From Amphiscolops sp. MND2022 (taxonomy: Eukaryota), in contig OZ076409.1 of the NCBI GenBank assembly GCA_964187785.1, positions 72,728,001-72,792,000 on the forward strand: a DNA stretch of 64,000 nt. Direction: 5' to 3'. Under the pieces are notes generated by a model. The model saw nothing but the letters and a program-made list of their open reading frames with translations, was not told the origin of the DNA and searched no databases. Shown piece by piece: positions 1-64,000 of the stretch. A program made the position numbers and the translations under genes. The stretch's first letter is position 1; each line of letters begins with the position of its first letter.

Positions 1-2712
1 TATTACATTAGGAACCGTGTTTTTTTTTTCACCAAAATCATGTTTTTGAGTGCCCAAAAACACTTTTTTAAAGCCCAGTAGCCACCTAAAATGTTCTTTT
101 GCATAACATGGGATGTGAATAACGTCAAGAAAGTGCTCACTATGGATTTGGAGTTATCTCGAAAAAATCAGCTGCCATTAGACGTTACATTACAGAAAAT
201 CGTACCTTACATATCGATACATGGGTTGAGTCAAAAACAGCTAAAGTTCTTTTTCAGTCAATCAATACTGTTTTTTGTTCACAACCAAGTGTACAGCTGA
301 CGTCGAACCTTTTTTGACCTTCCACAATGGTTATAATGCGATTTTGAGGGACAAAAGGCTTGTTGACAAACAAAATTCCAAGATGAAATTGCTTTCCAAA
401 TCATTTTTTGAAGTATAGGAACGCCATTTTTTGCCGACAACCATCAAATATCCACTTCTCTTGGCCCAGGGGCTTGTGAAAAATACAACTGAGCCTTGAC
501 AAGGCACATGGACCGTAATTCGAGTAGTCATGTACCACAACATTTGCTAATCGATAGCAACTTTTGTTGAAAATTGATACAACATCACATTTTTGGTGGA
601 CTCGAAATGACAAAATGGAGCTTTACCAGAAACTATTGGCTTTTAGTACAACTCACTGGCACTGTAAGTTACGAAAATACGGTTTACAGTAGTTTCATGC
701 TACTTTTTCAGAATCTGAGGTACATAAAAATATCATACTGAATAGACAAATAACTTCAACATCGGAATTTTTCCGGATGTGTCACCACCTTTTTGGTATC
801 AGCGGTCCTACCAACACTGCTTTTGGTCTAACACTAAACCCAAGGATCAACCAAGATGTATATCAGACTTGTAAAATCAATGCAAGGTCTTTCGACATGT
901 CAAAAGTACTGATAAGACGAGAATCTTCTCAAAAATTCATGTTATGTGTCATATTCCATTCCACGTTTATTAATCGGTGCTTGTCGGTTATAGTATTAAC
1001 GCTCAACAACGAGCTTACTGACACGAAACAACTTGTAGACAGTTATTAAAAGTATGTATAATTCCAACATGCTCGGTTTTGGCAGATTTTTCATCCCATT
1101 AGTTCTTAACGTGTAAATTTTACTTCCCAAAAACCCTATTTTTGTCAGGTCGAAATTCGAATTTTCGTGTTTTGATCAATATTATTGTGTCTGACGTAAC
1201 CTGTGGCCTCCAAAATACTCAAAAACAATAGTATGACTGCTATCAAATGCTTCAGTGACATGTGGGGCACGTTAACACGTTTTGGTAAGAAAAATTCCAC
1301 TTCGAAGTGAAAATTTGGAAGACACATTGTGTCAATAAAAACTGAATACATGCAAAACGTTCCTAACTCCCGTCAATTAGTATTGACGTAGTAACTGTGT
1401 TGCGAATTAGAGGTCTATAGAGTGGTGTATGGGAAAACTGTGGCGCATAAAGCGTTGTTCATAACAAAGTTCTTCCAATAACTACAATTGTGTTTTCAAA
1501 AGTTTCACTATATTTCACATATTCACAGAATGTGATTGATGCTACCTAGTAATGGAAAACCACTGTCGAATCTTCTTTAGTGGACTCAACAGTCCTGAAA
1601 ATCACAGACATACATCACGTTTCATAATTATACACTCGAGGCTACACAATAATTTATTTCCGCTAGTTGCTGATAACTGAATTTCCTGATAGCCTTCCAA
1701 GTTGGCCTTGTGTCAACCTGGGAAGGCTATCAGCACAAAACACAAAGAACACAGCTTGTTGTTGCCTCTAATTTGCTGTTGTTTTCGTTAAGATTTTATG
1801 GTACCGTTTCTTTATAACATGTGGTTAACATAAGACAATTTCTCTCTGTATGGAACGACATCCATTGATAAGAAAGATTACAGTTTTTTAGTTGAAAAAG
1901 ACCTTGAAACTACTGCGCAATTCATGCAATTTATCCAAAACGTTCATTCATTTCAATAATTTGCGTCCCATTGAGCGTCACAAACCACTATACCTCCTTT
2001 AACTGACAGTACAAAGACACATCATCCTTTGACCGTCCACAGAGCGAAGGCGTGGCGAGGCACGCCTTGCGAAGACCTTTGGCAAAACAGTACTAACGTC
2101 CGTTCGTGACGCATACGAAAAACTATTTTATTTTCAACAATCGTCATAAAGCATATTTGTTATATCGGCCTTTCGTTACATTTGTGCAATGATACCTTTA
2201 TCAGTGAAATATTAAGTTATACATAGGTAACTGCAGTAACTTCGTGATTACCAAAGTGATATCAAAATGTTGTTACATAAATATTTCTGACACAGCGGAA
2301 TTCCGAAGTGTCATTAGGCACTTTTTCAGTGCTCGTTAGGAAAGCGAGCACTTTTGCTTGGACCAAACAAGCTCGTATCAGACTGGTCATGTGAAGGCAA
2401 GTAACGGAATCGAAACAATGTTCCTCATCAACTTTTTGGTAGCGTCAGAAACACAATGTTTCCTTTTTAATGTCCCACAGTTGTTTGTTAGCTTCTGTTC
2501 ATAGAGAATTGTTTCTGCGCAGACCAAAATATAGCAAGTTATCCAATACGCCTGATAACGGATTTGCCCCACACAGAACTATCAGTTAACATTTTTGTAT
2601 GTTGATATCTTTTTACCCCGTTGTTCAACAACTCATGCACCTTCATTTCTTCTTCAACAACTAACTCGCCACCTCCTTGTCGTCTCGTGGTTTGTTTAGC
2701 CTCCAGCGCTAG
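1..2712 (+). repeat. Long cassette family L, 5' part outside the window
   Basis: Near-identical to 9489-12202 (offset ~9490); identity stops at the CTAG|GTG junction. Confidence 0.9.
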
Positions 2713-4905
2713 GTGGAGGTTATTTTATAATAATTAATGTGTTTTTTTCCGGAGTTTGTGGCTTTGGAAAAAACAAAAGGCGAGAAATCGTGCACTCCGG
2801 GCTGAACCGTATACACTCAAATTTCGCCCATTTTTTATACGATCTCGAAACCCAGCCGTACGATTTTGCTCAAAATTTGCATGCGGCTACAAAATCAGAT
2901 TCTAAGAACTATTTCCTGGTGACATTTTTTTGAAATTTTTGTGTACGTTTCCCCCCCGCCCCCTAAAGGGGTCACTTTTCCCCACTTTTGCACTTATGAG
3001 TCAAATTCTCAAACCTGGTGGATCTGAGCGTATTCCTGACGGGGACAACTTTTAACAAGCGCTCCTCAGTCGACCTTTTTGACTTTTTACTTTGGTGGTA
3101 CGTTCACCCCCCGAGGAGGAAATTGCGTTTTTGTGACTTCCGGTCGAGGCTTTTTTCACCCAAAAATTAGAATTAAGCCAGTTTTGAGCAGGAAGGAGTG
3201 GATTTAAAGTGCCTGTACCCTGCTAAAAATTTGTTGGGCTTGTAGCGATATATCTCATACCAAGTCTGGTTTTCACCCCCAAACCCCCCTTGAGACCAAA
3301 ATTCACCCAAAGTTTTTTACCTCTGTTTGTAGTTTTTTTACCGAATATCGTCATTTCCATGGGTACGGAGTTGAATTAGGGGCTCCTAATAGGGTACCGA
3401 TGTTCAAGTACACTTGCAGTGCAACTGAGTGACCCTTTTTGGGCCTCTCCTGTGTTCGGCAAGGACCGGAAGTGGTGTAACCCCCCCTTTTTTGACGTTT
3501 GTTGACCTTGAGACTCGCGCTTAGATGACGTTTATGTCGCGCAAATCCTACAAACAAGTATTAGGATGTCATGCTAGCCAACTAGAGAGCAGTAAGGGAA
3601 ACAATAATATATCGGAAGTAACCCCCCGTGACCGGAAGTTGTCATTTTTGACCGGAAATGGTCCAAAACCTAGCGTTAAAGCAGTTTTTCATTGCTTTTA
3701 AAGTCAACTTCTTACATTTTTCAATCTGCGCGAGCTTTTCTTCAGGTTCGTTTTTGTTGCCGGTGCACAGCAACGAATATACAACTGTAAAATTTTCGCT
3801 ATAAAATCGTCGGAGAGAGAAATAACGGAATATTTGGAGTTTTTTTCGAAAATATTAGTCTATATCTGTCATTTTTACCCAATGTTATTCAACAGTAGAA
3901 CCACAGATTTTATTCTCTGCCCAAAAATATGCCTAACAAATTCACCTGTCCCTTTGGTTGCAGTTTGAGCATTCTAGCTTTTTCTGGTCACAAGTAAGGG
4001 GACTTGAAAAAGTTTCAAAAACTTTTCCGAAAAATTTTTCTAAACGTCATGTCTCCCAAAGTTAAGAAACTTCCGCACAACTAGGATTACAAGTGAATGC
4101 ACGTGGTAAGACCTCTAATTGGAGAGAAAAATTCAGTTTAGAACGTCTCTTTATCGTAACGTGACGTTAAGAGAAGTTGCTTTGAATGCGAGCTTGATGA
4201 GACGTCGAGAAGTAACAGTGTGTAAATGGAACCTATGTCTCGACAAATACTCATCGGAATACATGAGATGAACCCCAATTACCCTCAATTTCAGTTGCCT
4301 AGTACAACAACGTCTTCCAAGGACCCTTTAATCTTTTTGATAAGCGTTGAAGTCATCAATAGATTGAGTTCGCAAGAAACAATTGAGTACATTCTCATCT
4401 CTCCCCATCGGGTGAGATGAGAATGTTTTTGCTGAAAGCCAGGTACTACGGCCCAATTTTGTTTCATTGCGACGCATTCTGTGCTTTAGCACATAGATAC
4501 TTTTATTCCGTCTCACTTTTTGTATACACTCTGATTTGTTGTTATGAATTTCTCGTCATTACTTTACATAAACTAATTACCATAAAACTTTAACGTCAAA
4601 GCCACATTCATTTAGACACCCACCATTCCGTAGGTATGCCGAGGTATGCCATTCGAAGATGTAGGTCAAACGCAAATGCGATAAAAATAGTGCTGAAAAT
4701 CGGAAACAGTGACAAACAATTTTGACTTTTTGATATTTGTTAGGTTTTCATATGGAACTTACACATCACTGACAATTCAAAACATTCCAGCTGACGCTCA
4801 CATACAAACATCAACGCCCACCGTCTGTGGGCATGCCGAGGCATGCCCTTCGACGACGTATAGCAAATTCCTTTAATATCTACACCCAATTGCGGTAGCT
4901 GCTAG
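2713..4905 (+). repeat. Cassette family B (2193 bp)
   Basis: Homologous to 29770-31960. Type I internal hairpin ~4385-4427, degenerate end box ~4632, canonical end box ~4828. Confidence 0.9.
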
Positions 4906-6193
4906 GTGGCCGGAAATTTTTTTTTTCATCAAAATCTTTGCCATTGGGGGAGGGGCCCCGGATGGCCAGTAGTACGGGATAGCTTCCTACCAAATCCAGG
5001 CGGAAAAAACGTGATTTTGGAAACTAGCCGTCAGAATTTGCTCAAATTTTGCATACGGCTTCCTATGACAATCCTAAGAACTAATCCCTACTGGCATTTT
5101 GCCCAAAAAACGCAAAAAGTTGGTCAAAATCTTAGTTTTTTGGTCAAAAAATGGCGTTTTTTCGAAAAAATTTTTTTTCAGAGACAATTACTCGTAACTG
5201 GGTCACCCAGCGCAAAAACGCCTAGCTGATTTATTGTTGGGCACTTCATGAGGAGTGCGTATACAAATTTTCGTCCAGATCGGAAAAAAAATGACTAAGT
5301 ATTAGACGGAATTCGGACTCATTTTTTCGCAAATTTTTGAAAACCTAGTCTATCTTTGCCGTTTTTTGCCCAGATTTTTTTCCAGGTCCTCTCCTAAAGG
5401 CCTCCCCTGGCCGGTTTACTTCCCAGAAAAACCAATTGGCCCTAAATACGGAGTTTCAGCGTTCTAGCATTCCCGGGCGAAAAGATGTGGGACTTAGAAA
5501 AAATTCAAAATTTTTCAAAAAATTTTTTTTTCGTTTTCCGGCCCCCCAATGAAGGGGAACGACCCCCCAACGAGGATTTTTGGTGAATTCACGTGGAAAG
5601 GCCTTGTTTTGTGGAGAAAATTGCCGTTTAGAGCGACTTTTTATCTTAACTTGACGTTGACCTCTGTCGTTTTGAATTTGATATTAGTATGTGTTGAGCA
5701 TGTGAAAAGTTGATGATTTCAGTTGTTCTCTCGTGTTCAAGCCATTGAGATACAAGCGGTAGTGATCAAAATGTGATTTATCGCAATTTGGTGGTGCTTT
5801 TGGTGTATTTTGATTCTTTTAAATAAAAAGTTGTTCTTTATATATTTGGTGTATTGATTCAAATTAACAAGAAACAGTTGAGTACATTTCATCTCCCCCC
5901 TTGTGGGGGAGATGAGGATGTACCCGCTAAATGACACGCACAATGGCCCACTTTTACTTTTATGCGACGTTTTCTAGGCTTTTGCGCAAGCCCACTAATA
6001 TTTAGACTGGTTTCCTTTTCTTTTACTCCAAAATTTTCCGTACTAACCACCTTACGCACCACCAGCTCAACGTAACATCCGTAACGTCAACGCCACACAC
6101 TCTCACTAACGCCCACCGTCCGTGGGCATGCCGAGGCATGCCCTTCGACGACGTATGCCAAATAGCGCCACAGGGCGCAAACTTGTCCGCTAG
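4906..6193 (+). repeat. Cassette family A (1288 bp)
   Basis: Near-identical copies start at 31961, 34637, 39171, 44797, 50446 and 59599. Confidence 0.92.
6095..6160 (+). other. Conserved subterminal end box (example): CAACGCCCACCGTCYGT-GGGCATGCC-GA-GGCATGCCC-TTCGACGACGTA
   Basis: Perfect 9-bp inverted repeat at 6124-6143. I count 33 intact copies, typically ~45-60 bp upstream of a cassette end. Confidence 0.9.
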
Positions 6194-7467
6194 GTGGCCG
6201 GGAACTTTTTTTCCTGCATTTTTCTGTCCAATTGGGGGAGGGGCCCCAAGTGGCTGTTATCCGGTTTTACTACCTACCCTAAACACGCTCAAAAAATGAC
6301 GATCTCGAAAACCACCCCTTAGATTTTCCTGAAACTTTGCATACAGGCCTAGAATCAAATCCTAAGAACTATTTCCTACTGGCGTTTTTCCGAATTTTTT
6401 CAAAAAGTTGGTCAAAAATGCAACAAAAGTTGCCAATGGACATAAAAAACGCAACTTTTCGACTTTGAGGGCCCATAACTTTTTTCAGAGTGCCCGGAGC
6501 GATTCGCACAATAACCACAATATTGCTCAGCATTGTCGGAGGAGTGCGTGGACGAAGTTTGGGGTCAATCGAATGAAAATTGATTGAGAAATAAACGCAA
6601 ATGTTCGTGCATTTGTTGCAAACACCAGTCTATCTCTGCCATTTTCGCCAAAAATTTTTCCCAGAGCCTTTATAGGAGGCAACCCCTGCCCAAATTTCTG
6701 CCGAGCAAACCCATTTGGCCCTAAATACGGAGTTTCAGCATTCTAGGATTCCCGGGCGAAAAGTTGTGGGACTTAGAAAAATTTCAAAAAAACGCAAAAA
6801 TTGTAAAAAGTAATTTAGGCGCCCCAAAGTCTCAAAACTTCCACACAACTAGTATTGCAAGTGAATGCATGTGGAAAGCACTTGAATAGACAAGAAATAT
6901 GAGCTATAGAACGACTCTGTAGCTTAATCTGACGTTGACTTATAACATTTTGAGTGTGAGCATCCTATAGGATTTTAATGTCAAAAATGAGATTTTGTAA
7001 GTCATGTCTCATCAAAAACTCATCGGAATACGTTCAATCATCCCCATAGCTGTTCAATCACCGTTGCTTAGTAGAGCAACGCCATTTAATGTCTTTGGAC
7101 CCATTTTGAAAATTTTCCTTACCGTCTTATTCGTCCGATATCACGAAACAATTGAGTACATTCCATCTCCCCCCTTGTGGGGGAGATGAGAATGTACTCG
7201 CCAAAGACCTGAAACAATGGCCCATATTGGTTTTTATTTGACTTTTCTCACAATATTGCACACGGATAGCTGTGTTTGGTAAAAGTTTTCCTTTGCACCA
7301 TGTCTCCAGAAGCAAAACCACTTCTTTAGCTTACTACTTCCACTCAAACATCACTAACGTCAACGCCACATACTCGCATCAACGCCCACCGTCTGTGGGC
7401 ATGCCGAGGCATGCCCTTCGACGACGTATGCCAAATAGCGCCGAAGGGCGCCCCCAATTTCCGCTAG
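6194..7467 (+). repeat. Short cassette, variant C (1274 bp)
   Basis: GTG head, core motif, type I hairpin 7154-7199, end box, CTAG. Confidence 0.88.
7154..7199 (+). other. Type I internal hairpin (example): GAGTACATTCCATCTCCCC-loop-GGGGAGATGAGAATGTACTC
   Basis: One per short or B cassette (25 counted), ~200 bp upstream of the end-box position. Confidence 0.88.
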
Positions 7468-10400
7468 GTGGTTGGGGCGTTATTCCCCACGAAGTTCGCG
7501 GCCGCGGGAGACGGGACCCGCGGACCGCCCATCCAATGCAAAAATATACACTCTAAACAGCACCATTATAAACACGATCTCGAAAATGAACCGTAGGATT
7601 GTCTTGAAATTTTGCATACGGATAGAAGCAAAAATTCTAAGAACTTTTTCCTGCTGGCACTTTTCCGAAAAAAACGTCCTTCATGGGTTTTTTTGGGTTT
7701 TTTTGGTTTTTTCTCATCTTTCTCATCTTTGATTAATCAATCACCGAATCAAATGCCATTTTCAGCATGAAGGAATGCACGTAGCGGCAAAGTGCACTTT
7801 TACAAAAATCATCAACGGTCAACGGTCTTTCGAACGGTCTAAAAAAATTTCCCCCCGGGGGCATGCAAAGTGCCGAAAAGTGCCAAAATATTTTTTTGGT
7901 CTGAATCATTTTGATGAAATTGTTGATTTGAGCAGCAGGAACGGTCCGCACGGTCTCGGACCATAAGGTCAAAAATTGTCAGTGAGTTATGGTGACGTCC
8001 AAAATGACATTGGTTGAGCTGTAGGAGGCCTATGAAAAAATTTGAATTTTTTGAGTCTACAATCCGAGCTGAACTGTTACGTATTATGAACTTTTCAGTA
8101 CTATGTTGCCAAAGACCGAGTACAGATAGGTGCATGGGTCAGCCTTATTGAAATGAACATTGGGCACTGGGCTAACGATTGAGTGCAAAAATTATAGCCT
8201 AGTTGCTGTAGTCGAAGAAAAAAATTCTCAGAAGTGTTACTTTCAATTTGTCATGTTGACTCGGAGTTACAAAAAGATGATTTTCTCGCCAACAACGGTC
8301 CGAACGGTCTTGGACCATAAGATCAAAAATTGTCAGTGTGCTATGGTGACGCCCAAAAACCCATCGGAACAAGCGTAGGATGCTTCTGAAAAAATTTCGA
8401 ATTTTTACCTCGGCCCAAGAGTTATTGTGTTACATCGTAACAACATTTCGTGTATGCATATCTCCTGACAGCGTACAGATAGCATCATGGGTCACCTTTT
8501 TGAAAGTGAACGTGGGCCACTGGTGTACTGCATGGTTATAAAAAATTTAGACTAAGTGCTGCATGGCGTGAATAATATGCCAAGATGTGGTATTTACGAT
8601 ATTTTAGCACGACTCGGACTGACAAAAAGCCTATTTCTGCCCCAGCAACGGTCCAAACGGTCATCAAGTATAAGGTCAAAAAATGTCAGTGTGACATTAT
8701 GGCGCCTAAAAACCTACCAGAATAATCGTAGGAAGCTTCTGAAAAAATTTTGAATTTTTACGTGGGCCCGAGAGTTATGATGTTGCATCGTAGCAACATT
8801 TCGGGTATGCATATCTCCCTACAGAGTACAGATAGCATCATGGGTCACCTTTTCGAAAAAGAACGTGGGCCACTGGTCTATCGATTGGTTGTAAAAAGTT
8901 TTCAATCACTGCTGCACGGCGTGAATAAAATGCCAATATGGGATATTTAGCATTTTTTTGCACGACTCGGACCTACAAAAGTCCCATTTCTGCTCCACCA
9001 ACGGTCCGTACGGTCTTCAACCATAAGGTCAAAAAGTGTCAGTGTGCTATGGTGACGCCCAAAAACCCAACAGTACACTTGTAGAGTGCTTCCGAAAACT
9101 TTTGGAATTTTTAGGTGAGTCCGAGAGTTATAGAGAGTTATGTTGTCACATGGTAACTACATTTCGGGAATGTATATCTCCTGACACAGTACAGATACCA
9201 ACATGGGTCATCTTTTGGAAAGTGAACGTGGGCCACTGGCCTACCGAATGGTGATAAAAAGTTTTCACCAGTTGCTACAGGGAGTGATAAAAGTGCTTAC
9301 ATAGTTTACATAGCATTTTTTCAGGCGACTCGGACTTACAAAAAGCTCATTTGCTAGCGAACAACGGTCTGTACGGTCTCCACTCAATGGGTCGAAAATT
9401 TTTTGTGGGCTATGGTGACGCTCAAAAACCCATCAGTTTACTTGTGGGATGATTCTATAAAAATTTAGTGTTTTCGTGCAGACTATGTTACATATTACAT
9501 TAGGAACCGTGTTTTTTCCTCACCAAAATCATGTTTTTGAGTGCCCAAAAGCAATTTTTAAAGCCCAGTAGCCACCTAAAATGTTCTTTTGCATAACATG
9601 GGATGTGAATAACGTCAAGAAAGTGCTCACTATGGATTTGGAGTTATCTCGAAAAAATCAGCTGCCATTAGACGTTACATTACAGAAAATCGTACCTTAC
9701 ATATCGATTCATGGGTTGAGTCAAAAACAGCTAAAGTTCTTTTTCAGTCAATCAATACTGTTTTTTGTTCACAACCAAGTGTACAGCTGACTTCGAAGCT
9801 ATTTTGACCTTCCACAATGGTTATAATGCGATTTTGAGGGACAAAAGGCTTGTTGACAAACAAAATTCCAAGATGAAATTGCTTTCCAAATCATTTTTTG
9901 AAGTATAGGAACGCCATTTTTTGCCGACAACCATCAAATATCCACTTCTCTTGGCCCAGGGGCTTGTGAAAAATACAACTGAGCCTTGACAAGGCACATG
10001 GACCGTAATTCGAGTAGTCATGTACCACAACATTTGCTAATCGATAGCAACTTTTGTTGAAAATTGATACAACATCACATTTTTGGTGAACTCGAAATGA
10101 CAAAATGGAGCTTTACCAGAAACTATTGGCTTTTAGTACAACTCACTGGCACTGTAAGTTACGAAAATACGGTTTACAGTAGTTTCATGCTACTTTTTCA
10201 GAATCTGAGGTACATAAAAATATCATACTGAATAGACAAATAACTTCAACATCGGAATTTTTCCGGATGTGTCACCACCTTTTTGGTATCAGCGGTCCTA
10301 CCAACACTGCTTTTGGTCTAACACTAAACCCAAGGATCAACCAAGATGTATATCAGACTTGTAAAATCAATGCAAGGTCTTTCGACATGTCAAAAGTACT

Positions 10401-16114: not shown

Positions 16115-16155
16115 GATAGCCTTCCAAGTTGGCCTTCGGCCAACTTGGAAGGCTA
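16115..16155 (+). other. Type II internal hairpin (example): TAGCCTTCCAAGTTGGCC-TTC-GGCCAACTTGGAAGGCTA
   Basis: Perfect 18-bp inverted repeat here. Variants at 1688, 11178, 20866, 29187, 34286, 37436, 44336, 49985, 57889, 59248, 63509. Confidence 0.88.
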
Positions 16156-44288: not shown

Positions 44289-44307
44289 GCGTTAACGCGT
44301 TATAAAT

Positions 44308-51732: not shown

Positions 51733-54700
51733 GTGGCCGTGTCTTTTCGACGTGCTTTTGCATTGAGGAGTGGGTAGGGCCCCGCGACGACCTAGAAGAA
51801 TTGGATGCTCACCGAAACGTGCAGAATTCTACGAGATCTCATAGTTTGAGCCATACGATTTTTCTGAAATTTGGCATGTGGCCTGGAATTGGTGAGTAGG
51901 TAAAACGTGTAGAAGGTAATTTTTCCCAAATTCCACTGTGAGAGGAGATATGGGCAAATAACGGACCCAAAAATGGCAAAAATGCACATTTTTCAACTTT
52001 GTCAGCCAATATCTCTTTTCCAGGTGCCCGTAGCGTTCCGCACGTGGACATCAATATTGCTCAGCGCTGTTGGAGGAGTGCGTGGACAAATTTTGGTTTA
52101 AATCGGACTAAAACTTGACGAGAAATTAACGGTTTTTTGGGCGTTTCCGGGGTAAATTTTTTAACGGTCCAGCTTATCTTTGCCATTTTTTCGAAAATGT
52201 ACATGCCTAAAGGCCTCCCCCTGGCCGAATTTACTCCCAGCAAACCCATTTGGCCCTAAATACGGAGTTTCAGCGTTCCAGCATTCCGGGGCGGAAAGTT
52301 GTGGGACTTGGAAAAATTTCAAAATTTTTTCAAAAATTTTTTTTCCCGTTTTCCGGGCCCCCAATGAAGGGGAACGACCCCCCAACCAGTATTTTGAGTG
52401 AATTCATGTGGAAAGCCCATGTTTGGAGGAGAAAAATGCCGTTTAGCACATCTTTTTATCTTAACTTGACATTGACTTATGACGTTTTGAATGTGATGTT
52501 AGGATATATGAAGCATGTTAAAAGTTGAAGTTTTGAGTCTTTATCTCATCGGAAAACCATTGAGATACAAGCAGTTTTGCTAAAAACGATTTTCATTGTA
52601 GGTTAGCAGAGTATTAGTACACTTTGATGTCATTTGAGTATATTTTTCTTCTATATAATAACTGTTTTTATGTATTTATTCCAATTTATCTCATCTTTTA
52701 ACATCAAGCAGTTGAGTACATTTCATCTCCCTTTCGGGGGAGATGAGAATGTACTCGCTAAAAACCTAATGCTATGGCGCCAATGTTTGGATGGGAAGTT
52801 TTCTATGCTTTGAAAAAAGTTATTTTTAATTACTTGATTTTTTAAAACAATAATTAACATGAAGTACATTACTTGCTCCTACTACTACCACCATACATCT
52901 CTAACGTCAACGCCCCCTGCTTGCATCAACGCCCCATCGTCCGTGGGCATGCCGAGGCATGCCCTTCGACGACGTATGCCAAATGCCCAGTGCCACGCAG
53001 TCTTTTCCCGCTAGGTGGCCGTGTCTTTTCGACGTGCTTTTGCATTGAGGAGTGGGTAGGGCCCCGCGACGACCTAGAAGAATTGGATGCTCACCGAAAC
53101 GTGCAGAATTCTACGAGATCTCATAGTTTGAGCCATACGATTTTGCTGAAATTTGGCATGTGGCCTGGAATTGGTGAGTAGGTAAAACGTGTAGGAGGTG
53201 ATTTTTCCCAAATTCCACTGTGAGACGAGATATGGGCAAATAACGGTCCCAAAAATGGCAAAAATGCACTTTTTTCAACTTTGTCAGCCCATATCTCGTT
53301 CCCAGGTGCCCGGAGCGGGACGCGTTAAGCTGATTATAAACTCTAGGGTGTTGAGGCTGTACGGGGAAGTCAGGCCCGTTCCGATCGGACTTGTAGTCTT
53401 GGAGAAATAACGGTATTTTTGGGGAACCTTTTCTAACGGTCCAGCTTATCTTTGCCATTTTTTCGAAAATGTACTCGCCTAAAGGCCTCCCCCTGGCCGA
53501 ATTTACTCCCAGCAAAACCATTTGGCCCTAAATACGGAGTTTCAGCGTTCCAGCATTCCCGGGCGAAAAGTTGTGGGACTTGGAAAAATTCAAAAATTTT
53601 CAAAAAAATTTTTTTTTCGTTTTCCGGGTCCCCAATGAAGGGGAAACGACCCCCCAACCAGTATTTTGAGTGAATTCATGTGGAAAGCCCTTGTTTTGAC
53701 GAGAAAAATACCGTTTAGAACATCTTTTTATCTTGACTCAACGTTGACTTATGACGTTTTGAATGTGATGTAAGGATGTAGGAGGCATGTGATAAGTTGA
53801 TGTTTTGAGTCTTTATCTCATATGAAAGCGGTTGAGATGCAAGCTGTCCTGCTCAAAACGTCTTTCGTTGTAATTTTCCAGTGCACCAATACCCTTTGGT
53901 GTCATATAAACATACTTTTTGTCGATATATTAACATTTTTAATGTATTTATTCCAATTTTTATTATCTTATAACTCAAAACAGTTGAGTACATTTCATCT
54001 CCCTTTCGGGGGAGATGAGAATGTACTCGCTAAAGACCTAGCGCCATGACCAAAAGTTTGAAACCCACGTTTTTTATCTTCTTACAGACTTGTTTTTGTA
54101 TTTTTTCGGAATTTTTTAAAAATTAATATACTTGAAATACATTACTTGACTTTACTACTACAACCCACCTCCAACGACAACGCCCCCTGCTTGCATCAAC
54201 GCCCCATCGTCCGTGGGCATGCCGAGGCATGCCCTTCGACGACGTATGCCAAATGCCCAGTGCCACGCAGTCTTTCCCCGCTAGGTGGCCGTGTCTTTTC
54301 GACGTGCTTTTGCATTGAGGAGTGGGTAGGGCCCCGCGACGACCTAGAAGAATTGGATGCTCACCGAAACGTGCAGAATTCTACGAGATCTCATAGTTTG
54401 AGCCATACGATTTTGCTGAAATTTGGCATGTGGCCTGGAATTGGTGAGTAGGTAAAACGTGTAGGAGGTGATTTTTCCCAAATTCCACTGTGAGACGAGA
54501 TATGGGCAAATAACGGTCCCAAAAATGGCAAAAATGCACTTTTTTCAACTTTGTCAGCCCATATCTCGTTCCCAGGTGCCCGGAGCGGGACGCGTTAAGC
54601 TGATTATAAACTCTAGGGTGTTGAGGCTGTACGGGGAAGTCAGGCCCGTTCCGATCGGACTTGTAGTCTTGGAGAAATAACGGTATTTTTGGGGAACCTT

Positions 54701-56821
54701 TTCTAACGGTCCAGCTTATCTTTGCCATTTTTTCGAAAATGTACTCGCCTAAAGGCCTCCCCCTGGCCGAATTTACTCCCAGCAAAACCATTTGGCCCTA
54801 AATACGGAGTTTCAGCGTTCCAGCATTCCCGGGCGAAAAGTTGTGGGACTTGGAAAAATTCAAAAATTTTCAAAAAAATTTTTTTTTCGTTTTCCGGGTC
54901 CCCAATGAAGGGGAAACGACCCCCCAACCAGTATTTTGAGTGAATTCATGTGGAAAGCCCTTGTTTTGACGAGAAAAATACCGTTTAGAACATCTTTTTA
55001 TCTTGACTCAACGTTGACTTATGACGTTTTGAATGTGATGTAAGGATGTAGGAGGCATGTGATAAGTTGATGTTTTGAGTCTTTATCTCATATGAAAGCG
55101 GTTGAGATGCAAGCTGTCCTGCTCAAAACGTCTTTCGTTGTAATTTTCCAGTGCACCAATACCCTTTGGTGTCATATAAACATACTTTTTGTCGATATAT
55201 TAACATTTTTAATGTATTTATTCCAATTTTTATTATCTTATAACTCAAAACAGTTGAGTACATTTCATCTCCCTTTCGGGGGAGATGAGAATGTACTCGC
55301 TAAAGACCTAGCGCCATGACCAAAAGTTTGAAACCCACGTTTTTTATCTTCTTACAGACTTGTTTTTGTATTTTTTCGGAATTTTTTAAAAATTAATATA
55401 CTTGAAATACATTACTTGACTTTACTACTACAACCCACCTCCAACGACAACGCCCCCCTGCTTGCATCAACGCCCACCGTCCGTGGGCATGCCGAGGCAT
55501 GCCCTTCGACGACGTATGCCAAATGCCCAGTGCCACGCAGTCATTATCGCTAGGTGGCCGTGTCTTTTCGACGTGCTTTTGCATTGAGGAGTGGGTAGGG
55601 CCCCGCGACGACCTAGAAGAATTGGATGCTCACCGAAACGTGCAGAATTCTACGAGATCTCATAGTTTGAGCCATACGATTTTGCTGAAATTTGGCATGT
55701 GGCCTGGAATTGGTGAGTAGGTAAAACGTGTAGGAGGTGATTTTTCCCAAATTCCACTGTGAGACGAGATATGGGCAAATAACGGACCCAAAAATGGCAA
55801 AAATGCACTTTTTTCAACTTTGTCAGCCCATATCTCGTTCCCAGGTGCCCGGAGCGGGACGCGTTAAGCTGATTATAAACTCTCGGGTGTTGAGGCTGTA
55901 CGGGGAAGTCAGGCTCGTTCCGATCGGACTTGTAGTCTTGGAGAAATAACGGTATTTTTGGGGAACCTTTTCTAACGGTCCAGCTTATCTTTGCCATTTT
56001 TTCGAAAATGTACTCGCCTAAAGGCCTCCCCCTGGCCGAATTTACTCCCAGCAAAACCATTTGGCCCTAAATACGGAGTTTCAGCGTTCCAGCATTCCCG
56101 GGCGAAAAGTTGTGGGACTTGGAAAATTTTGAAAAATTTTCAAAAATTTTTTTTTCGTTTTCCGGGCCCCCAATGAAGGGGAAACGACCCCCCAACCAGT
56201 ATTTTGAGTGAATTCATGTGGAAAGCCCTTGTTTTGACGAGAAAAATACCGTTTAAAACATCTTTTTATTCTGACTCAACGTTGACTTATGACGTTTTGA
56301 ATGTGATGTAAGGATGTAGGAGGCATGTGATAAGTTGATGTTTTGAGTCTTTATCTCATATGAAAGCGGTTGAGATGCAAGCTGTCCTGCTCAAAACGTC
56401 TTTCGTTGTAATTTTCCAGTGCACCAATACCCTTTGGTGTCATATAAACATACTTTTTGTCGATATATTAACAATTTTAATGTATTTATTCCAATTTTTA
56501 TTATCTTATAACTCAAAACAGTTGAGTACATTTCATCTCCCTTTCGGGGGAGATGAGAATGTACTCGCTAAAGACCTAGCGCCATGACCAAAAGTTTGAA
56601 ACCCACGTTTTTTATCTTCTTACAGACTTGTTTTTGTATTTTTTTGGAATTTTTTAAAAATTAATATACTTGAAATACATTACTTGACTTTACTACTACA
56701 ACCCACCTCCAACGACAACGCCCCCCTGCTTGCATCAACGCCCACCGTCCGTGGGCATGCCGAGGCATGCCCTTCGACGACGTATGCCAAATGCCCAGTG
56801 CCACGCAGTCATTATCGCTAG
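51733..56821 (+). repeat. Four tandem family-F short cassettes (51733-53014, 53015-54284, 54285-55553, 55554-56821)
   Basis: Shared head GTGGCCGTGTCTTTTCGACGTGC. The last three are near-identical (1270, 1269, 1268 bp); the first has a different body. Confidence 0.92.
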
Positions 56822-58211
56822 GTGGTCGGGTATTTTTTTTTACTCGTAGATGGCGTTTGCGAGGCTTTGGGGAGGGCCCCGTGCCGAGCCTGTACCGAAA
56901 TTTACCACATACCAGAAGTGTCCGATTTAATCGAGATCTCAAAAACTAACCGTTAGAATTCTCTGAAATTTTGCATGTGGCCCCTAATCAATGAGTAATG
57001 AAAAAGTGTAGGAGTGACGGTTGCTGAAAAACTTGTCTTTGTTGCACTTTTTGCGCAATTTTTGTCGCATTGTTGCGTTTTTTATGTCATTTTCGACTTT
57101 TCAAGCAAAAAACTCATAGATGCTTTGTTCCTAGCGTATCAAGTGTGGAGCACGAAAAGTTGCAGCATCTTCCATTACGTATGCTGAGAAAATTTGGTTG
57201 CCCTCGGATTACCCCCCACAGAGATAGAGGGGTGCATCCGGGTATTTTTGACTCCTAAATTTGGGAAATTGCTAATTTTCGTAATAAAGCTGTAGATTTA
57301 GCGCGTGCACACCCTGCTGAAGATTTGTTAGGCATTTTGAGATAGATCCGATGACATGCGTTGAGTTCACCCCCATCACCTCCTTGACCGGAAATGAACG
57401 TTTTTGTGCACTTTCAGACCGGAAGTCTCCATTTTCACCGGTAAGGAGGCATTGTACGAGCAACTAGCAGGATATCAAAAGTGAAGTATAGCCTGGGGTC
57501 AACCTAATGACCACGTGTTGTCCAGTCATGGGTTTCGCTATGACCGGAAATGGGCTTAAAACCCCCTTTTGGTAGTATTTTTATCAATTTTCCTTGTGCT
57601 TGGTCCACATTCAAGTTGCGTAAGTCAGTTGAACCAGTGAGAGCATAAAATATATATTCACTGCGTAGTCGTAACTGACACTGCCAGATACCGGAAGTAA
57701 CCCCCTGTGACCGGAAGAGGTCAATTTTGACCGGAAATGGTCCAAAAAGTAGCGTAAATGCAGTTTTCAATGCTTTTCAAGGTCAAGTTATTAGTATTTT
57801 TCAATTTGAAAGCTATTTTCCACGCAAAAAGCTAACATCGTTGCATGTTTTGCTGAAAATCGGAAAAGTGATCACCATTATCACCCCCGATAGCCTTTCA
57901 AGTTGACCTTTGGTCAATCTTGAAGGCTATCTGTCCTGAAAACGAAAAATAGTGGAATTTTGTTTCCTCCTTTCTCTTGATATTTTTCCTTCAAGTCAAT
58001 TTGTCAAAAGAAAGACATTTGTTCAACTGAGTGATCTGAAACCTGTCCAGAGGTGTCACCCGGACGAATACCATTTCAAGCTGAAGTACACAAATCAGGG
58101 TAGTATTAGACATCACACACTCCTACCAACTACCACCGTCTGTGGGCATGCCGAGGCATGCCCTTCGACGACGTATGCCAAATAGCGCTACAGGGCGCCC
58201 ACATTTGCTAG
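56822..58211 (+). repeat. Divergent H-like cassette (1390 bp)
   Basis: Type II hairpin 57889-57931; ACCGGAAGTAACCCCC block shared with families B and H. Confidence 0.83.
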
Positions 58212-59598
58212 GTGGTTGGGGCGGTCCCCAGAACGCACAAGGAGGCGCGGGGAGGGTCCTGCGCCGACGTAGAATAATTTCATAAAATACTAGTATCCTA
58301 CATGGGTGATTTAGAGGCGATTTTGGAATCTAACCGTACGATTTGGATAATTTTTTGCATGCGGCCATAACTCGAAATTCTAAGAACTTTTTCTCACTGT
58401 CATTTTCCCCGCAAATTGTTTTTTGTTGACTTATGGCCGAAAAACCGGAAATAACGTCCTTTTTAAACGTTATATCCGAAGTGTTGTCATAACTTTTTTC
58501 CAGGGCATGCTAGCGTTCCCGTTCACTTTTACACTTAGTTGCAGCATCTCAAAATACAACTGGTGGAAAATTTTGGTTGCATTCGGATCACCCCCCACCG
58601 AGATAGAAGGGTTCCCCCCTCCAGTTTTACCCCCCAAAATTGAGAAAATACCAATTTTGAGCATGAAGCCGTGGATTTAGCGAATCCTTACCCCCCTATT
58701 GTTTTGTCGGACGTATTAGGGTCAATCTGGCGACATGTGTGGTTTTCACCCCCAACCCCCCCTGGGACCGGAAATGACATTTTTTGTGTTTTTTGACAAA
58801 AATTAGCCTTTTTGATTAGTTGGCAGTCGTTTTTGGGCCTCCTAGCAGGATATCGAAGTTGAAATACAACTTGATCACAACCCAGTGACAACATGTTGGC
58901 CAGTTGCAGGTACCATCATGACCGGAAGTGGGGTCAAACCCCCTTTTTGTGACCGCTTTTTGACCTTGTGCACCAAAATGCCAACAACTTGAGGCCTAAT
59001 GACGCATTCAAATCTGTACAAAGATAGAACGTTAGACAACGGAAGTCCCGGAAGCTCTTTAGCATATACCGGAAGTCACCCCCCATGACCGGAAGTTGTC
59101 CAATGTGACCGGAAATGGTCCAAAAATTCATGTAAAATTAATTTTTTCACTTATTGAATACCACTTCGTTGAACATTTTCAATCCCAAAACTAGCGTACT
59201 AGCTGGTGGCGTTGAATTTATGGAAATTGAGGAGCTTTATCACCCCCGATAGCCTTCGAAGTTGACCTTGCGTCAACTTTGGAGGCTATCGATTCTGAAA
59301 ATGAACAACAAAGTATTTTGTTGCTCTCGTTTTTTTCCGTTTTTTTCCTCAAATATTGTTGAGACATACACATGGCCGTTAGTTAAAATCAATATTTTAG
59401 CCCATGTTATAGCGTGAGTAGCGAAGCGTTACACAGGCTGGTGTGGTTTTGAACTATAATTATTTTAAAATAAAAAAAGACCATCTTAGTCAACTCCACA
59501 CATTCATACCAACGCCCACCGTCTGTGGGCATGCCGAGGCATGCCCTTCGACGACGTATGACGAATCCACTCCAACGACACCCGCAGTCCTCAGCTAG
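58212..59598 (+). repeat. Cassette family H (1387 bp)
   Basis: Homologous to 33249-34636. Confidence 0.9.
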
Positions 59599-60885
59599 GT
59601 GGCCGGAAATTTTTTTTTCATCAAAATCTTTGCCATTGGGGGAGGGGCCCCGGATGGCCAGTAGTACGGGATAGCTTCCTACCAAATCCAGATGGAAAAA
59701 ACGTGATTTCGGAAACTAGCCGTCAGAATTTGCTCAAATTTTGCATACGGCTTCCTATAACAATCCTAAGAACTAATCCCTACTGGCATTTTGCCCAAAA
59801 AACGCAAAAAGTTGGTCAAAATCTTAGTTTTTTGGTCAAAAAATGGCGTTTTTTCGAAAAAAAAATTTTTCAGAGACAATTACTCGTAACTGGTTCACCC
59901 AGCGCAAAAACGCCTAGCTGATTTATTGTCGGGCACTTCATCAGGAGTACGTATACAAATTTTCGTCCAAATCGGATAAAAATTGATTGAGAAATAACTG
60001 AAAATTTGAGGCATTTTTTTGGAAATTTTTGAAATCCCAGTCTATCTCTGCCGTTTTTTGCCCAGATTTTTTTCCAGACACTTTCCTAAAGACCTCCCCT
60101 GGCCGGTTTACCTCCCAGCAAAACCATTTGGCCCTAAATACGGAGTTTCAGCGTTCTAGCATTCCCGGGCGAAAAGATGTAGGACTTAGAAAAAATTCAA
60201 AAATTTTCAAAATTTTTTTTTTGCGTTTCCTGGCCCCCCAATGAAGGGGAACGACCCCCCAACTAGGATTTTTGGTGAATCCATGTGAAAAGGCCTTGTT
60301 TAGTGGAGCAAATTGCCGTTCAGAGCGACTTTTTATCTTAACTTGACGTTGACCTCTGTCGTTTTGAATTTGATATCAGTATGTGTTGAGCATGTGAAAA
60401 GTTCACGATTTCAATTGTTCTCCCGTGTTCAAGCCATTGAGATACAAGCGGTAGTGATCAAAATGTGATTTATCGCAATTTGGTGGTGTTTTTGGTGTAT
60501 TTTGATTCTTTTAAATAAAAAGTTGTTCTTTCTATATTTGGTGTATTGATTCAAATTAACAAGAAACAGTTGAGTACATTTCATCTCCCCCCTTGTGGGG
60601 GAGATGAGGATGTACCCGCTAAATGACACGCACAATGGCCCAATTTTATTTTTATGCGACGTTTTCTAGGCTTTTGCGCAAGCCCACTAAAATTTAGACT
60701 GGTTTCCTTTTCTTTTACTCCAAAATTTTCCGTACTAACCACCTTACGCACCACCAGCTCAACGTAATATCTGTAACGTCAACGCCACATACTCGCATCA
60801 ACGCCCACCGTCCGTGGGCATGCCGAGGCATGCCCTTCGACGACGTATGCCAAATAGCGCCACAGGGCGCAAACTTGTCCGCTAG
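59599..60885 (+). repeat. Cassette family A with divergent central patch (1287 bp)
   Basis: A-like ends; ~59930-60340 carries variants typical of D-like and other short units. Confidence 0.88.
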
Positions 60886-61954
60886 GTGGTCAAGGGGGAT
60901 GCCCATCAGAAAATATTGCGAGGCCGGGGAGGGTCCCGAGAGCCGAGCACATTCTATCAATTCCTACCTTCAGGATTGCGAAGTATTTTAACCGATCTCG
61001 AAATTCACCCGTAGGATTTGTCTGAAACTTTGCATGTGGCTTCATCTTAAAAATTTAAGAATTTTTTTCTGCTGACGTTTTTCCAGGAAAATTCATTTTG
61101 TAGGGTTTTTTTGCGTTTTTTTGGTTTTTTTCATCTTTGTTCATCTTTGATTAATCAATGACCAAATCAAAGGCCATTTTCACCATGAAGGAAAGCCCGT
61201 AGCGGCAAAGTGCACTTTTATGAAAATCATCAACGGTCAACGGTCTTTCGAACGGTCCAAAAAAATTTCCCCCCGGGGGAAACCAAAGTGCCGAAAAGTG
61301 CCAAAATTATTTTTTGACTGAATCACTTTGATCAAATTGATGATTTGAGTAGCCGGAACGGTCCGCACGGTCTCGGACAATAAGGCCAAAAATTGTCAGC
61401 ATCCAATGGGGGTTCCAAAAATGTAATTCGTTCACCTGTAGGAGACATCAGAAAAAAGTTGATTTTTTGGGGTATATGTCATTATGAGTGATTGGATGAG
61501 AAATAATTGTATCACTTTCAGTTGGATATGATGCAGCACAGGAAGCAGCTGCAGCAAACTTGAAACTGATTATGGGGCTGGGGTTTACCCTCTGTATCGA
61601 GCAAAATAGCCCTAGGGCATAAGTTGTGCCAAAAAATGCCTCAAAGTGATGATTTGGTTATTCCAAATCGATCAGCAAAATTTATTGTCACCGGTGTTCC
61701 GAGAGTTGCGCAGCATCTCGCAGGAACAACGGTGCTTGCTTAGAAAGCAAAAAACCACAAAATCCCTTGAGTTAAGTTGACGGCAGTCACCATAGACATT
61801 CACACGTCAGGGTGATGATATTTATCGTTCAATCCCAGAATAACTTACAAAAAATTGCTAGCCTCAATATTTCTTTTTCATACTCCATTAGCAAAGGTTG
61901 CGCTGTTAAGTTTAGGCCTTTTACTAGCAGTGCTCTAAATCGCTCCATCGCTAG
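60886..61954 (+). repeat. Shortened L-related cassette with unique 3' half (1069 bp)
   Basis: ~61100-61400 matches L heads (7680-7980). No internal hairpin or end box seen; ends CGCTAG. Confidence 0.8.
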
Positions 61955-63969
61955 GTGGTCGGGGTTTTCTCCCCACCTTTATTTGCGAGCGCGGGAGACG
62001 GGTCCTGTCGCGAGCCTTAGATACCAAAAATAGCCTATCCGCGACCGGGTCAAAAAAATGCGATCTCGAAAACTAGCCGTACGATTTGGCTGAAATTTGG
62101 CACACGGCTTCCTATAACAATTCTAAGAAACATTTACTACTGACGTTTTGCTGGCAAAAATCGAAAAGTGGGTCAAAATAACGGTTTTTGGGGTAAAAAG
62201 TAGCGTTTTTTTGAAAATTTTGCATTTCACAGCCAATTACTCGGAAATGGTCGATCCAGCGCAGTAACGCCTTGCTGATTTATTGTTGGGCACGTCAAGA
62301 GGCGTACGTACACAAATTTTCGTCAAAATCGGACTGAAACTTGGGGAGATATTAACGGTAGTTTGGGGGTTTCAAACCGCTATTTTACAGGAAATTGCAC
62401 TTTTTGACCGGGAAGGAGTTGTCTGAGTGCGGGGTCGTCTGGTAATGTTTTGTAGAGCATCTGGGGACGTAGTGGGGGACATGTAATTTAATGACCCCGG
62501 TTAACCCCTCGGACGGGAAATGACCGTTATGTGGGTTTTAAATGTGGCCCCCGCCAATTTTCCCCGTTATTTCCGGTGTGAAGGAGTGGTAGTAGCGCGT
62601 CGGGTGCCTTATATCAAAAGTACGTTTAGACAAGGACCTATTGGAAACATGTGGTTTGAGACCCTTTGAACGGACCCGTTAGCCGCTAATGGGGTGACTG
62701 CCTCCTTTTTTTGGGGGTAATACCGTAAAACGGGCATTGAAGTGAAATTAACTCGTGAACGCGTGGAGCTATCGTGTCCTTCACTACTACAAGGTTTCAT
62801 ACCCATGATATGGTGCCTTCAGGGGGGCAACAGATTTCCGCTATCTATCACCGTTACGGACTTGGCCCCCCAGCCTAACCGCTATGTGACCGGAAATGTC
62901 ACTTTTTGAGCCCAAAGTGTCGGTCCCAGCGTGGCAACGTTAGGTAACATATTGTAGTACACATTGAGACGAGTCGGGGGATTTAGTTTCAGTCACACCC
63001 TGTTGGCCCGTTAGGTCGGAAATGACCGTTATGTAGTGAAAAATGGGATTTTTATAGTTTTTGAAGGCCATTTCGGGCAGGAAGGAGGGGTAATATGACT
63101 TTGGACACCATATGATGGAAGACGTGAAGTGTGACGAGCATTCCGGATTAACCGTTATGATGACCCGGAAGTCCCCCTGGCCCCGGAAATGACCAAAAAA
63201 ATGTAACATTTTGTGTTTTTTGATTAAAAATGTTTGTTATTTAACCGAATAAAGTACATGTTAGGTGTTTCAATTTCTTCCAGAGGTGAATATAGTCCAA
63301 TTACATGGTGGGGGGTAACGGTATATTGCCCCGGAAGTCCAACCCGTTGGGTCTGAGTATGTTTTTCGGGTTTTAAAATGTGTCAAAACGTACTTTTGTG
63401 TAATAAATCTCTTTTGTAGGCTAATAAGGACCATTTTTGAAGAGTTTAAATTTTTTCATAGTAGTTTGTGGAACACCAAAAACTTAAATAACATAACCGT
63501 TATAATATGATAGCCTTTCAAGTTGGCCTTGTGTCAACTTGGAAAGGCTATCCTTCAAGACTCATGCAACAAAGAAGTTTTTGGGTACATTTGTATTGCT
63601 TTAGTGTCAATTAGAGTATCAACAAGAGTATACCAAGCACTAAAATTATGTCTAGTTTTCGTTATTAGGATATTAGTTTCCTTAATATTTGTCGGAAATG
63701 CTTTTTTTAATCTCTTTTAATGTGGTCTAAATACTCTGAAAACACTTTATCGAACCAATTTTCTTGGATGAACCTTAGTAACAATACTAAAAATCGTAGA
63801 CAACCTTGCTTCGTTTAAATATTTGAAGCTGAAACCGCACCTTACCGTTGCTCAAACTTCAACCCGACGCCCCATAGCATACATCAACGCCCATCGTCTG
63901 TGGGCATGCCGAGGCATGCCCTTCGACGACGTATGCCAAATACCTTTAACCCGACGCCCGCAGTCCTGG
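61955..63969 (+). repeat. Chimeric cassette: short-type head plus family-G body (2015 bp)
   Basis: ~62060-62360 resembles A/E heads; from ~62375 it matches G repeats. Type II hairpin 63509-63552; ends CTGG. Confidence 0.85.
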
Positions 63970-64000
63970 GTGCCGGGATTTCTATTCGATAAAGTATGTG

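Follow-up and report, generated by a model that had tools for sequence, protein, structure and literature searches.

Results

Head-to-tail units in the window

The stretch of DNA analyzed here (the window, 64,000 nucleotides [nt], C1:72728001-72792000) lies at 72.73 to 72.79 Mb of contig C1 in the 1.07-Gb assembly of Amphiscolops sp. MND2022 and consists of noncoding units joined head to tail at a short motif, CTRG|GTG, in which the bar marks the boundary between one unit and the next. These units are almost certainly non-autonomous members of the Helitron-like (rolling-circle) transposons. Autonomous units with the same ends occur in the arrays of this genome and encode a Rep-helicase protein (RepHel), and insertion at the junctions of resident units is probably the main process by which the arrays were built.

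The junction sequence CT[AG]GGTG occurs 36 times on the forward strand of the window (32 CTAG and 4 CTGG), as opposed to order-2 Markov expectations of 2.0 and 2.4 for the junction 7-mers. No CTAG-type site is present on the reverse strand of the window, and the eight CTGG-type sites on that strand are not junctions because they lie at a constant offset inside families C (seven sites) and J (one site). Cutting at the 36 junctions yields 35 whole units of 1,069 to 4,953 bp, and the 37 resulting pieces form 20 clusters in BLAST comparisons, in the order A B C D A E A F G H I J B C K C L M C N O O C O O O C P Q Q Q R K C S T O. All pieces lie on one strand, the sole minus-strand match among them being one self-palindrome. 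The original prediction, which was made from the letters of the window, had described 36 spacer-free junctions and uniform orientation, and both descriptions survived the recount. The features of the window are as follows.

1..64000 (+): the window, a stretch of head-to-tail array of units that are almost certainly non-autonomous and rolling-circle (Helitron-like)
1..2712 (+): U00, family A, 3' part
2713..4905 (+): U01, family B, 2,193 bp
4906..6193 (+): U02, family C, 1,288 bp
4940..4966 (+): one instance of the 5' hairpin with its G-rich loop, a putative origin signal
6124..6143 (+): one instance of the conserved palindrome near the 3' end, some 50 nt upstream of CTAG, a putative terminator
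6190..6196 (+): example of the junction CTAG|GTG, the end of one unit and the start of the next
6194..7467 (+): U03, family D
7468..12202 (+): U04, family A, 4,735 bp, with an internal tandem repeat of about 353 bp
12203..17155 (+): U05, family E, 4,953 bp, with its first 58 bp, including the 5' hairpin, tandemly duplicated
17156..21871 (+): U06, family A
21872..25693 (+): U07 to U09, families F, G, and H, 1,264 to 1,281 bp, about 84% mutually alike
25694..26970 (+): U10, family I, in which the first 760 bp match the autonomous unit at C5:22.68 Mb at 93.6% identity
26971..29769 (+): U11, family J, 2,799 bp
29770..35923 (+): U12 to U15, families B, C, K, and C
35924..37896 (+): U16, family L, 1,973 bp
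37897..39170 (+): U17, family M, in which the first 798 bp match the autonomous unit at C1:74.33 Mb at 93.5% identity
39171..40458 (+): U18, family C
40459..41727 (+): U19, family N, 99.3 to 99.4% identical to both units of the dimer nested at C1:74,374,180
41728..46084 (+): U20 to U22 (O, long O, and C), a three-unit block in its first copy
46085..47376 (+): U23, mosaic O-type unit separating the two block copies
47377..51732 (+): U24 to U26, second block copy (100, 100, and 99.8% identity)
51733..56821 (+): U27 to U30 (P, Q, Q, and Q), a short homogeneous run
56822..63969 (+): U31 to U35, families R, K, C, S, and T
63970..64000 (+): U36, start of the next unit

Family C, with seven copies in the window, is followed by a different unit type each time. 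Unit pairs with at least 97% identity and differing neighbors remained identical past the junction for a median of 4 nt, both on the left (49 pairs) and on the right (48 pairs). The break therefore falls within the 7-mer and not in a 60-bp 3' motif that is common to most families. This 60-bp motif had been considered as the crossover site and was ruled out, family-specific tails remaining with the left unit.

The longest stop-to-stop frame in the window is 173 amino acids (aa), and profiles of Rep, helicase, GIY-YIG, and ORF2 (the second open reading frame [ORF] of the autonomous units, described below) do not match the window units, in keeping with their original description as noncoding. Terminal inverted repeats (TIRs), whose lack had also been claimed, are absent from the 60 units examined, in which the longest end-to-end complement (6 to 9 nt) equals that of shuffled sequences. 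An Rfam scan of the window gave 0 matches. Tandem Repeats Finder reported internal repeats only, because the units exceed its 500-bp period limit; those of families A and E have periods of about 353 to 363 bp (positions 8258-9436, 13423-14255, and 17946-19114) and could possibly seed satellite DNA.

Unit ends and their genome-wide census

Each unit begins with GTG[GC], followed some 35 to 65 nt in by a hairpin with a G-rich loop and family-specific stems. The loop motif is present in 88 of 92 distinct heads, and the mean energy is -9.0 kcal/mol, versus -6.0 kcal/mol for shuffles. At the other end, most families carry a 20-bp palindrome about 50 nt upstream of CTRG; families A, E, and S and several autonomous units have no such 3' hairpin, and the CTRG end is present everywhere. 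Short 5' fragments of about 60 to 85 bp are duplicated or stacked in the window (12203-12318) and at two other loci (L086 and L090). Because the 5' hairpin is nearly universal and short 5' fragments are found in this state, the 5' end is probably the origin. The junction CTAG|GTG, for its part, would be both the predicted circle junction and the preferred target. Within window units, the best-target 6-mer CTRGGT occurs 2 times on the forward strand versus 28 times on the reverse strand, an imbalance that suggests strand-specific selection against internal cut sites.

The window belongs to an array-rich region of about 6 Mb (about C1:70.45-76.5 Mb). Junction-bearing DNA was found in every stretch sampled from the host edge at C1:70,454,838 to about 76.44 Mb, with one sampled block inverted. 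A search of the genome for other arrays and for solo copies recovered both, with further arrays on C1 to C6 and C10. Inverted blocks occur within large arrays (L014 at C1:76.085-76.095 Mb, and C2:102.4-103.9 Mb), orientation being uniform inside blocks, and orientation switches at C1:23.98 Mb (C1:23.977 Mb).

Pattern counts across the genome returned 4,747 3' hairpins with CTRG followed by GTG[GC] and 55 with SCTAG followed by A, C, or T. Of the latter, 30 were checked and comprised 5 altered internal junctions, 1 duplicate, and 24 true edges. At 5' ends the preceding bases were CTRG in 2,221 cases, CTYG in 22, DNNG in 7, and a base other than G in 11. Arrayed ends make up about 99% of the counted ends, a share computed with patterns that omit 3' ends before a G other than that of GTG[GC] and 5' ends after CVNG, and unplaced contigs may inflate the end counts. 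These elements adjoin the end of a resident unit far more often than anything else, as anticipated when such an end was proposed as the target. Three 5' ends on different contigs (L091, L093, and L096) follow similar upstream DNA ending in CTCA, which is an additional repeat serving as a target or else part of a unit family that the sample lacks.

Autonomous units

A search with PF14214 (Pfam) gave weak matches in frames of 2,350 to 2,600 aa that lie inside arrays and on the array strand. We fetched 12 units with an open RepHel frame of more than 2,300 aa, all of them among array units; 11 are bounded by CTRG|GTG on both sides, and in the remaining one the 5' boundary reads CTCG|GTG. A long unit with the same ends that encodes a Rep/helicase, HUH nuclease, tyrosine recombinase, or reverse transcriptase had been predicted, and these units encode an HUH Rep-helicase. 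Autonomous units are 12 to 17 kb long and encode proteins of 2,300 to 2,850 aa. Their 5' hairpin recurs in window units, with which they have up to about 800 bp in common, at up to 93.6% identity. The autonomous 5' region is matched by 33 of the 35 window units and the 3' end by 31 of 35; for example, nt 128-770 of U08 match the 5' region of one autonomous unit at 85.6% identity.

The large frame contains Helitron_like_N and PIF1 domains and mostly a C-terminal GIY-YIG domain (Pfam). Both PF14214 and PF05970 exceeded the cutoff in four of four RepHel frames, with 31 to 42 bits for Rep and 28 to 44 bits for PIF1, compared with 199 and 238 bits in a canonical Helitron (HLE1, a class of Helitron-like elements [HLEs]) of the same genome. 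An alignment of 10 frames from this genome shows motif I, HUH, and YxxxY in all 10, Walker A is intact, and matches in the PDB are to Pif1 helicases and Helraiser. Four RepHel lineages, whose mutual identity is only 27 to 30%, have the identical junction type. A search with the C terminus found 36 open frames of at least 2,300 aa among 150 scored of 294 candidates, and 16 of these 36 are located in the C1 array region. Both dispersed autonomous copies that were fetched are broken.

GIY-YIG is present in 96 of the 98 homologues long enough to show it. In one RepHel family (L152, C1:70561001-70568000), GIY-YIG occupies a separate frame of 203 to 204 aa that overlaps the helicase end; its length is equal in the eight listed copies, and a small intron or a frameshift separates it. 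Frames of 203 aa were for a time taken for genes encoding GIY-YIG only, a candidate that was rejected when the one fetched was found to be the C-terminal part of RepHel in a second frame. The RepHel at C5:22.68 Mb (L053:1387-9156, minus strand) has an N-terminal segment that by eye is OTU-like, and OTU (PF02338) is listed for several homologues.

Downstream of RepHel lies the second frame, ORF2 (280 to 470 aa), which is conserved across lineages and has no match among Pfam or PDB sequences. A model from a 22-sequence alignment (predicted local distance difference test score of 83) matched RPA in Foldseek (E = 1.2e-4, with low TM-scores of about 0.2), and OB-fold matches had Z scores of 9.3 for MCM10 and 7.8 for RPA (VIA). 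The modeled fold, which by itself is no proof of function, is consistent with an RPA-like OB-fold protein that would bind single-stranded DNA (ssDNA). Some autonomous units have extra frames of 220 to 290 aa (L050:4283-5158, minus strand; L015:664-1434; and L046:5859-6515); one such frame has a weak GDSL/SGNH-type look (Lipase_GDSL_2, E = 0.11), and three others form a family of their own.

Insertion sites and target preference

A two-unit insert at C1:74,374,180 interrupts a resident unit at CTTG^GT, and the resident unit continues exactly beyond it (1,111 + 176 nt) with no duplication; the two inserted units are 99.4% alike. One solo copy (L071) has an empty paralogue that reads CTCG^ATT and shows no target duplication, and a second (L104) has an empty paralogue with no duplication and a single base difference at the site. 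Units are therefore inserted whole and without target-site duplication (TSD), two properties that the original prediction had proposed. It had also held that no unit is nested inside another, which is correct for 93 of 93 units around the window and incorrect for the nested insertion just described, elsewhere on the contig. A solo copy at L102 (C2:16307700-16313300) interrupts a tRNA-like sequence, and by eye its flanks resemble the halves of a tRNA gene or of a tRNA-derived short interspersed element.

The last four bases at 12 host 5' edges are CTAG (5), CTCG (3), CTTG (2), ATAG (1), and GTCC (1), so that G precedes the cut in 11 of 12 and T occupies position 2 in 12 of 12. After the cut comes A or T and then T: base +2 is T at 21 of 24 host 3' edges, G at +1 having been excluded by the search pattern. 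The target is thus about CTNG^DT, to which the element's own junction, CTAG^GT, is the best match.

The same rule could operate with no preference for junctions if insertion followed CTNG^DT only and copies outside arrays were subsequently purged or decayed, leaving arrays predominant through biased retention in a gene-poor refuge. Solo copies at host sites, the broken state of both dispersed autonomous copies, and the 16 of 36 listed open frames of at least 2,300 aa that fall in the C1 array region would fit this explanation. No purge is expected inside arrays, and yet internal CTNG[AGT]T sites in the window (83 on the forward and 153 on the reverse strand) outnumber the 36 junctions and are unused. 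None of the 93 units contains an internal unit start, and none is reversed. Because these internal sites are unused, the short motif alone cannot explain the arrays, and we consider purging very improbable as the source of the pattern. Insertions appear to occur almost only at the ends of the element's own copies.

Host edges also bear on whether the junctions could have been produced in the assembly, by stitching of repeat reads at a shared motif. The order of units in the window is known from the assembly and not from long reads, which leaves room for such an artifact, but the junctions share 7 nt only and clean host edges with matching empty paralogues exist on several contigs. In addition, a short-read contig of run X1, possibly the source sample, spans a 5' junction of the U16 (family L) type with another left neighbor. 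An artifact of this sort has a negligible chance of being the explanation. A search of sequencing runs listed one holder with a small share and no RNA holder.

A further explanation, included in the original prediction, is that a Crypton- or integron-like tyrosine recombinase swaps cassettes at the 7-mer, with RepHel units as passengers. It is true of recombinases in general that a 7-bp common core and the lack of duplication suit their chemistry. Pfam scans of 13 frames of the autonomous units (4 RepHel and 9 accessory) contain no tyrosine recombinase, no genome-wide search for one having been made; host edges share only a degenerate motif of 4 + 2 nt and not a paired site; and the autonomous units hold a full kit for ssDNA rolling-circle transposition. 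The probability that we assign to the recombinase option is minimal.

Order, duplication, and mosaicism of units

The order of units was analyzed over 164 contiguous kb containing 93 units of 37 families. Of 55 near-identical pairs (at least 97% identity), 43 have neither neighbor in common. Small arrays of three to eight units at separate loci are already mixed and have precise junctions. A three-unit array and its paralogue (L116 and L100) differ in that, of the units, the paralogue retains no more than the final 17 nt of unit 1, with matching sequence on both sides, which suggests that units were added 3' of the first, or could reflect loss. The array at C10:57.8 Mb contains a 16-nt spacer that is either host DNA or donor read-through.

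The families had originally been described as interleaved, and their order is indeed mixed; it is not fully random, given 10 same-family neighbors versus 3.5 and one repeated trimer. A further correction to the original description is that breakpoints also lie inside units, which makes the families mosaics.

Discussion

Probable assembly of arrays by insertion at junctions

We consider it likely, by analogy with HUH chemistry in Helitrons and IS91, that junction-targeted insertion is the main builder of the arrays and that units encoding RepHel-GIY-YIG and the RPA-like protein act on the others in trans. The domains of these proteins and the dimer insertion are the evidence from which we infer transposition through ssDNA circles. 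In such a scheme, Rep would nick at CTRG^GTG, and the helicase and the RPA-like protein would displace one strand as far as the next CTRG, where a second cut after CTRG would close the strand into a circle whose junction is again CTRG|GTG. One active site would cut donor and target, with hairpin binding supplying the preference, and because the same site would act on both, the best target would be a chromosomal copy of the junction with its hairpins, that is, the end of a resident unit. Strand transfer would then insert the unit and turn one junction into two, and growth would therefore be autocatalytic, in a single orientation, and open to all families that share the signal. Terminator read-through and concatemers would produce dimers, trimers, and local runs, and homologous recombination inside units would produce mosaics. 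The GIY-YIG domain most likely serves, on prediction, as an auxiliary nickase for the second strand or for target opening.

Several observations weigh against junction targeting, which is deduced from sequence. The only clean insertion is the 99.4% dimer, at an off-junction site. Within the 93 units, the 10 same-family neighbors (3.5 in shuffled orders) denote local duplication, repeated dimers number 16 (5.6 in shuffled orders), and the trimer at 41728-46084 recurs at 47377-51732 with 99.8 to 100% identity. Local duplication and the dimer insertion therefore make part of the census a product of amplification and not of separate targeting events, and the end types omitted from the census patterns count on the same side. 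Among 92 short units, head, body, and tail segments are reassorted in 2 to 9 of 13 to 19 multimember clusters, and recombination can therefore also shuffle unit order. The C5:22.68 family has a degenerate GIY-YIG and is nonetheless intact and arrayed. Finally, the boundary is ambiguous by one G that can be assigned to either side; CTRG|GTG is preferred because of the analogy with the CTRR end of Helitrons and because 11 starts follow a base other than G.

These observations leave room for an account with little true junction targeting, in which neighboring insertions or local hopping seed clusters, and concatemers, read-through, unequal crossover, and gene conversion amplify and shuffle them to megabases. 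The dimer, the repeated trimer, the same-family excess, and the internal mosaics all suit it, as do long same-family runs at C1:38.14-38.16 Mb and the tandem Helitron insertions described in bat, Drosophila, rice, and maize (PMC5148889; here and below, statements refer to the available parts of the cited sources). Concatemers alone would give homogeneous runs, and crossover keeps neighbor pairs, yet 43 of 55 pairs share no neighbor. Moreover, breakpoints lie in the 7-mer, arrays of only three to eight units are already mixed and precise, and RepHel lineages at 27 to 30% identity adjoin at exact junctions. Local amplification as the chief cause is in our judgment unlikely, and insertion targeted to junctions remains the favored explanation.

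Relation to known rolling-circle transposons

Integrons are one-directional arrays of mobile units joined at a short core, in which the site is regenerated with each insertion. The array had been called integron-like, a comparison that holds as an analogy between arrays and fails in that no tyrosine integrase is seen here, the units have no cargo genes, and no excision is shown.

The elements possess the features of the Helitron-like superfamily: HUH with two catalytic tyrosines, a C-terminal Pif1 fusion, and no TSD. Following the definitions of HLE1 and HLE2 in PMC11417382 and PMC3627910, they resemble HLE1 in the Y2 HUH Rep-Pif1 protein, the 3' CTRR end (usually with a subterminal hairpin), the lack of TSD, the RPA-like gene downstream of RepHel, and the possession of both ends by non-autonomous copies (PMC11417382). 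Unlike HLE1, which starts with TC and targets A^T, they start with GTG at all 36 window junctions and at host edges, target CTNG^DT, and have a 5' hairpin, a C-terminal GIY-YIG, and almost all of their copies head to tail. Hairpins at both ends recall Helitron2 (PMC3627910), and a 5' stem-loop with a 3' CTAG recalls proto-Helentrons (PMC11417382). HelenSM92, an HLE2 of Sphagnum, likewise has a GIY-YIG domain; by description it differs in its TIRs and TT|TT sites (PMC11417382), and it may nevertheless be kin. In contrast to HLE2, the array elements have neither asymmetric TIRs nor a T^T target, and DUF6570 was found in 0 of 4 array RepHel proteins (at an E cutoff of 0.05) and 0 of 4 homologues, versus 6 of 6 HLE2-type frames of the genome. 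Pfam scans of the array RepHel show no AP endonuclease, which distinguishes them from Helentrons, and GIY-YIG instead.

A quick tree placed 14 RepHel-GIY-YIG rows on one side of a long branch (Shimodaira-Hasegawa approximate likelihood-ratio test, 100), apart from 7 HLE2 rows and the single HLE1 row; the quick trees are unrooted, without bootstrap, and thinly sampled, HLE1 is one long branch, and a motif filter removed 9 of 12 candidate HLE2 rows. The same genome has long open frames of canonical HLE1 and of several DUF6570-bearing HLE2 elements, which are dispersed and without these junctions (L124-L131).

Among bacterial elements, IS91 targets positions next to the tetranucleotides CTTG, GTTC, and CTCG, all with T at position 2, leaves no duplication, and forms junction-bearing circles (PMC13181058). 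It shares with the array elements the Y2 HUH rolling-circle mechanism, orientation-specific insertion, and a target tetranucleotide related to its own terminal cleavage site (PMC13181058), and array host edges are likewise CTAG, CTCG, and CTTG, with T at position 2 in 12 of 12. The array elements differ in that they are eukaryotic and have their own helicase, GIY-YIG, and RPA-like gene, and the available part of PMC13181058 describes no large mixed IS91 arrays. Tandem Helitrons of plant centromeres, bat, and Drosophila are also head-to-tail copies ascribed to circles (PMC5148889), but those copies are truncated (PMC5148889), whereas in this genome arrays are the rule, and they interleave whole units, with about 37 families per 164 kb, and four distant autonomous lineages. 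Replitrons are eukaryotic HUH transposons with orientation-specific insertion that lack a helicase and have short direct terminal repeats (PMC10288648), unlike the array elements, which have a Pif1 helicase and other ends.

The original prediction did not recognize a described system. That stands for the lineage, which is Helitron-like and apparently undescribed, but not for its kind, Helitron-like rolling-circle transposons being well known. Neither this lineage nor the targeting of their own junctions by Helitrons is described in the literature searched, subscription journals, Repbase Reports, Repbase, and Dfam being outside its scope. In their available parts, a survey of Helitron helicases (PMC8788227) lacks GIY and does not describe the lineage, nor do a centromere atlas (bioRxiv 10.64898/2026.09.17.752431) and the account of Replitrons (PMC10288648); some unclassified clusters of HELIANO (supplement S8 of PMC11417382) may bear on novelty.

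Relatives beyond this genome

Relatives at E of at most 1e-30 number 315 clusters, and an ESM Atlas cluster with PIF1 and GIY-YIG was found at 0.98; the database names of relatives are uninformative. Metagenome homologues occur at 13 loci with 29 to 37% identity, one of which also has an ORF2 homologue (E = 3e-32). No element ends and no GTG-type junction were seen at these loci, including two contigs of 17 to 20 kb. In two metagenome contigs (L142 and L143), whose DNA is rich in AT and in CTAG, a RepHel-GIY-YIG homologue of 2,439 aa is accompanied by several unknown frames, and in L143 the RPA-like ORF2 is on the opposite strand. A scan of viral contigs with P0021 gave no match. At least one close ENA match (P0002) is identical over the block shown to a frame of this genome, and close database matches were therefore not counted as host range.

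Implications

To our knowledge, the choice of target and the joining to it are the least understood step of eukaryotic rolling-circle transposition. Since the target here looks like a copy of the junction that the element's circle would carry, this step becomes testable with short substrates, and eukaryotic RepHel proteins are tied to the IS91 rule. There is, in our estimate, an even chance that the elements are a third major Helitron-like branch, extending beyond this genome and defined by Rep-Pif1-GIY-YIG and an RPA-like gene, in which an IS91-type target rule has turned into strict self-junction targeting, with GIY-YIG possibly opening the target. Ancient lineages and dozens of parasitic families would then share one recombination-like site in reshuffled refuges of megabase size. 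If so, this would be a natural, sequence-directed, duplication-free system of ssDNA integration in a eukaryote, and an integrase that accepts large cargo, prefers a site, and leaves no duplication would be of interest as a tool for genome engineering.

Structure-based Helitron finders seek TC..CTRR ends or TIRs (PMC11417382); they would miss GTG..CTRG ends, and the lineage may therefore have been overlooked elsewhere. The arrays would represent a route to megabase repeats that is neither satellite drift nor nested insertion, and they would provide a self-made refuge in which intact autonomous copies persist.

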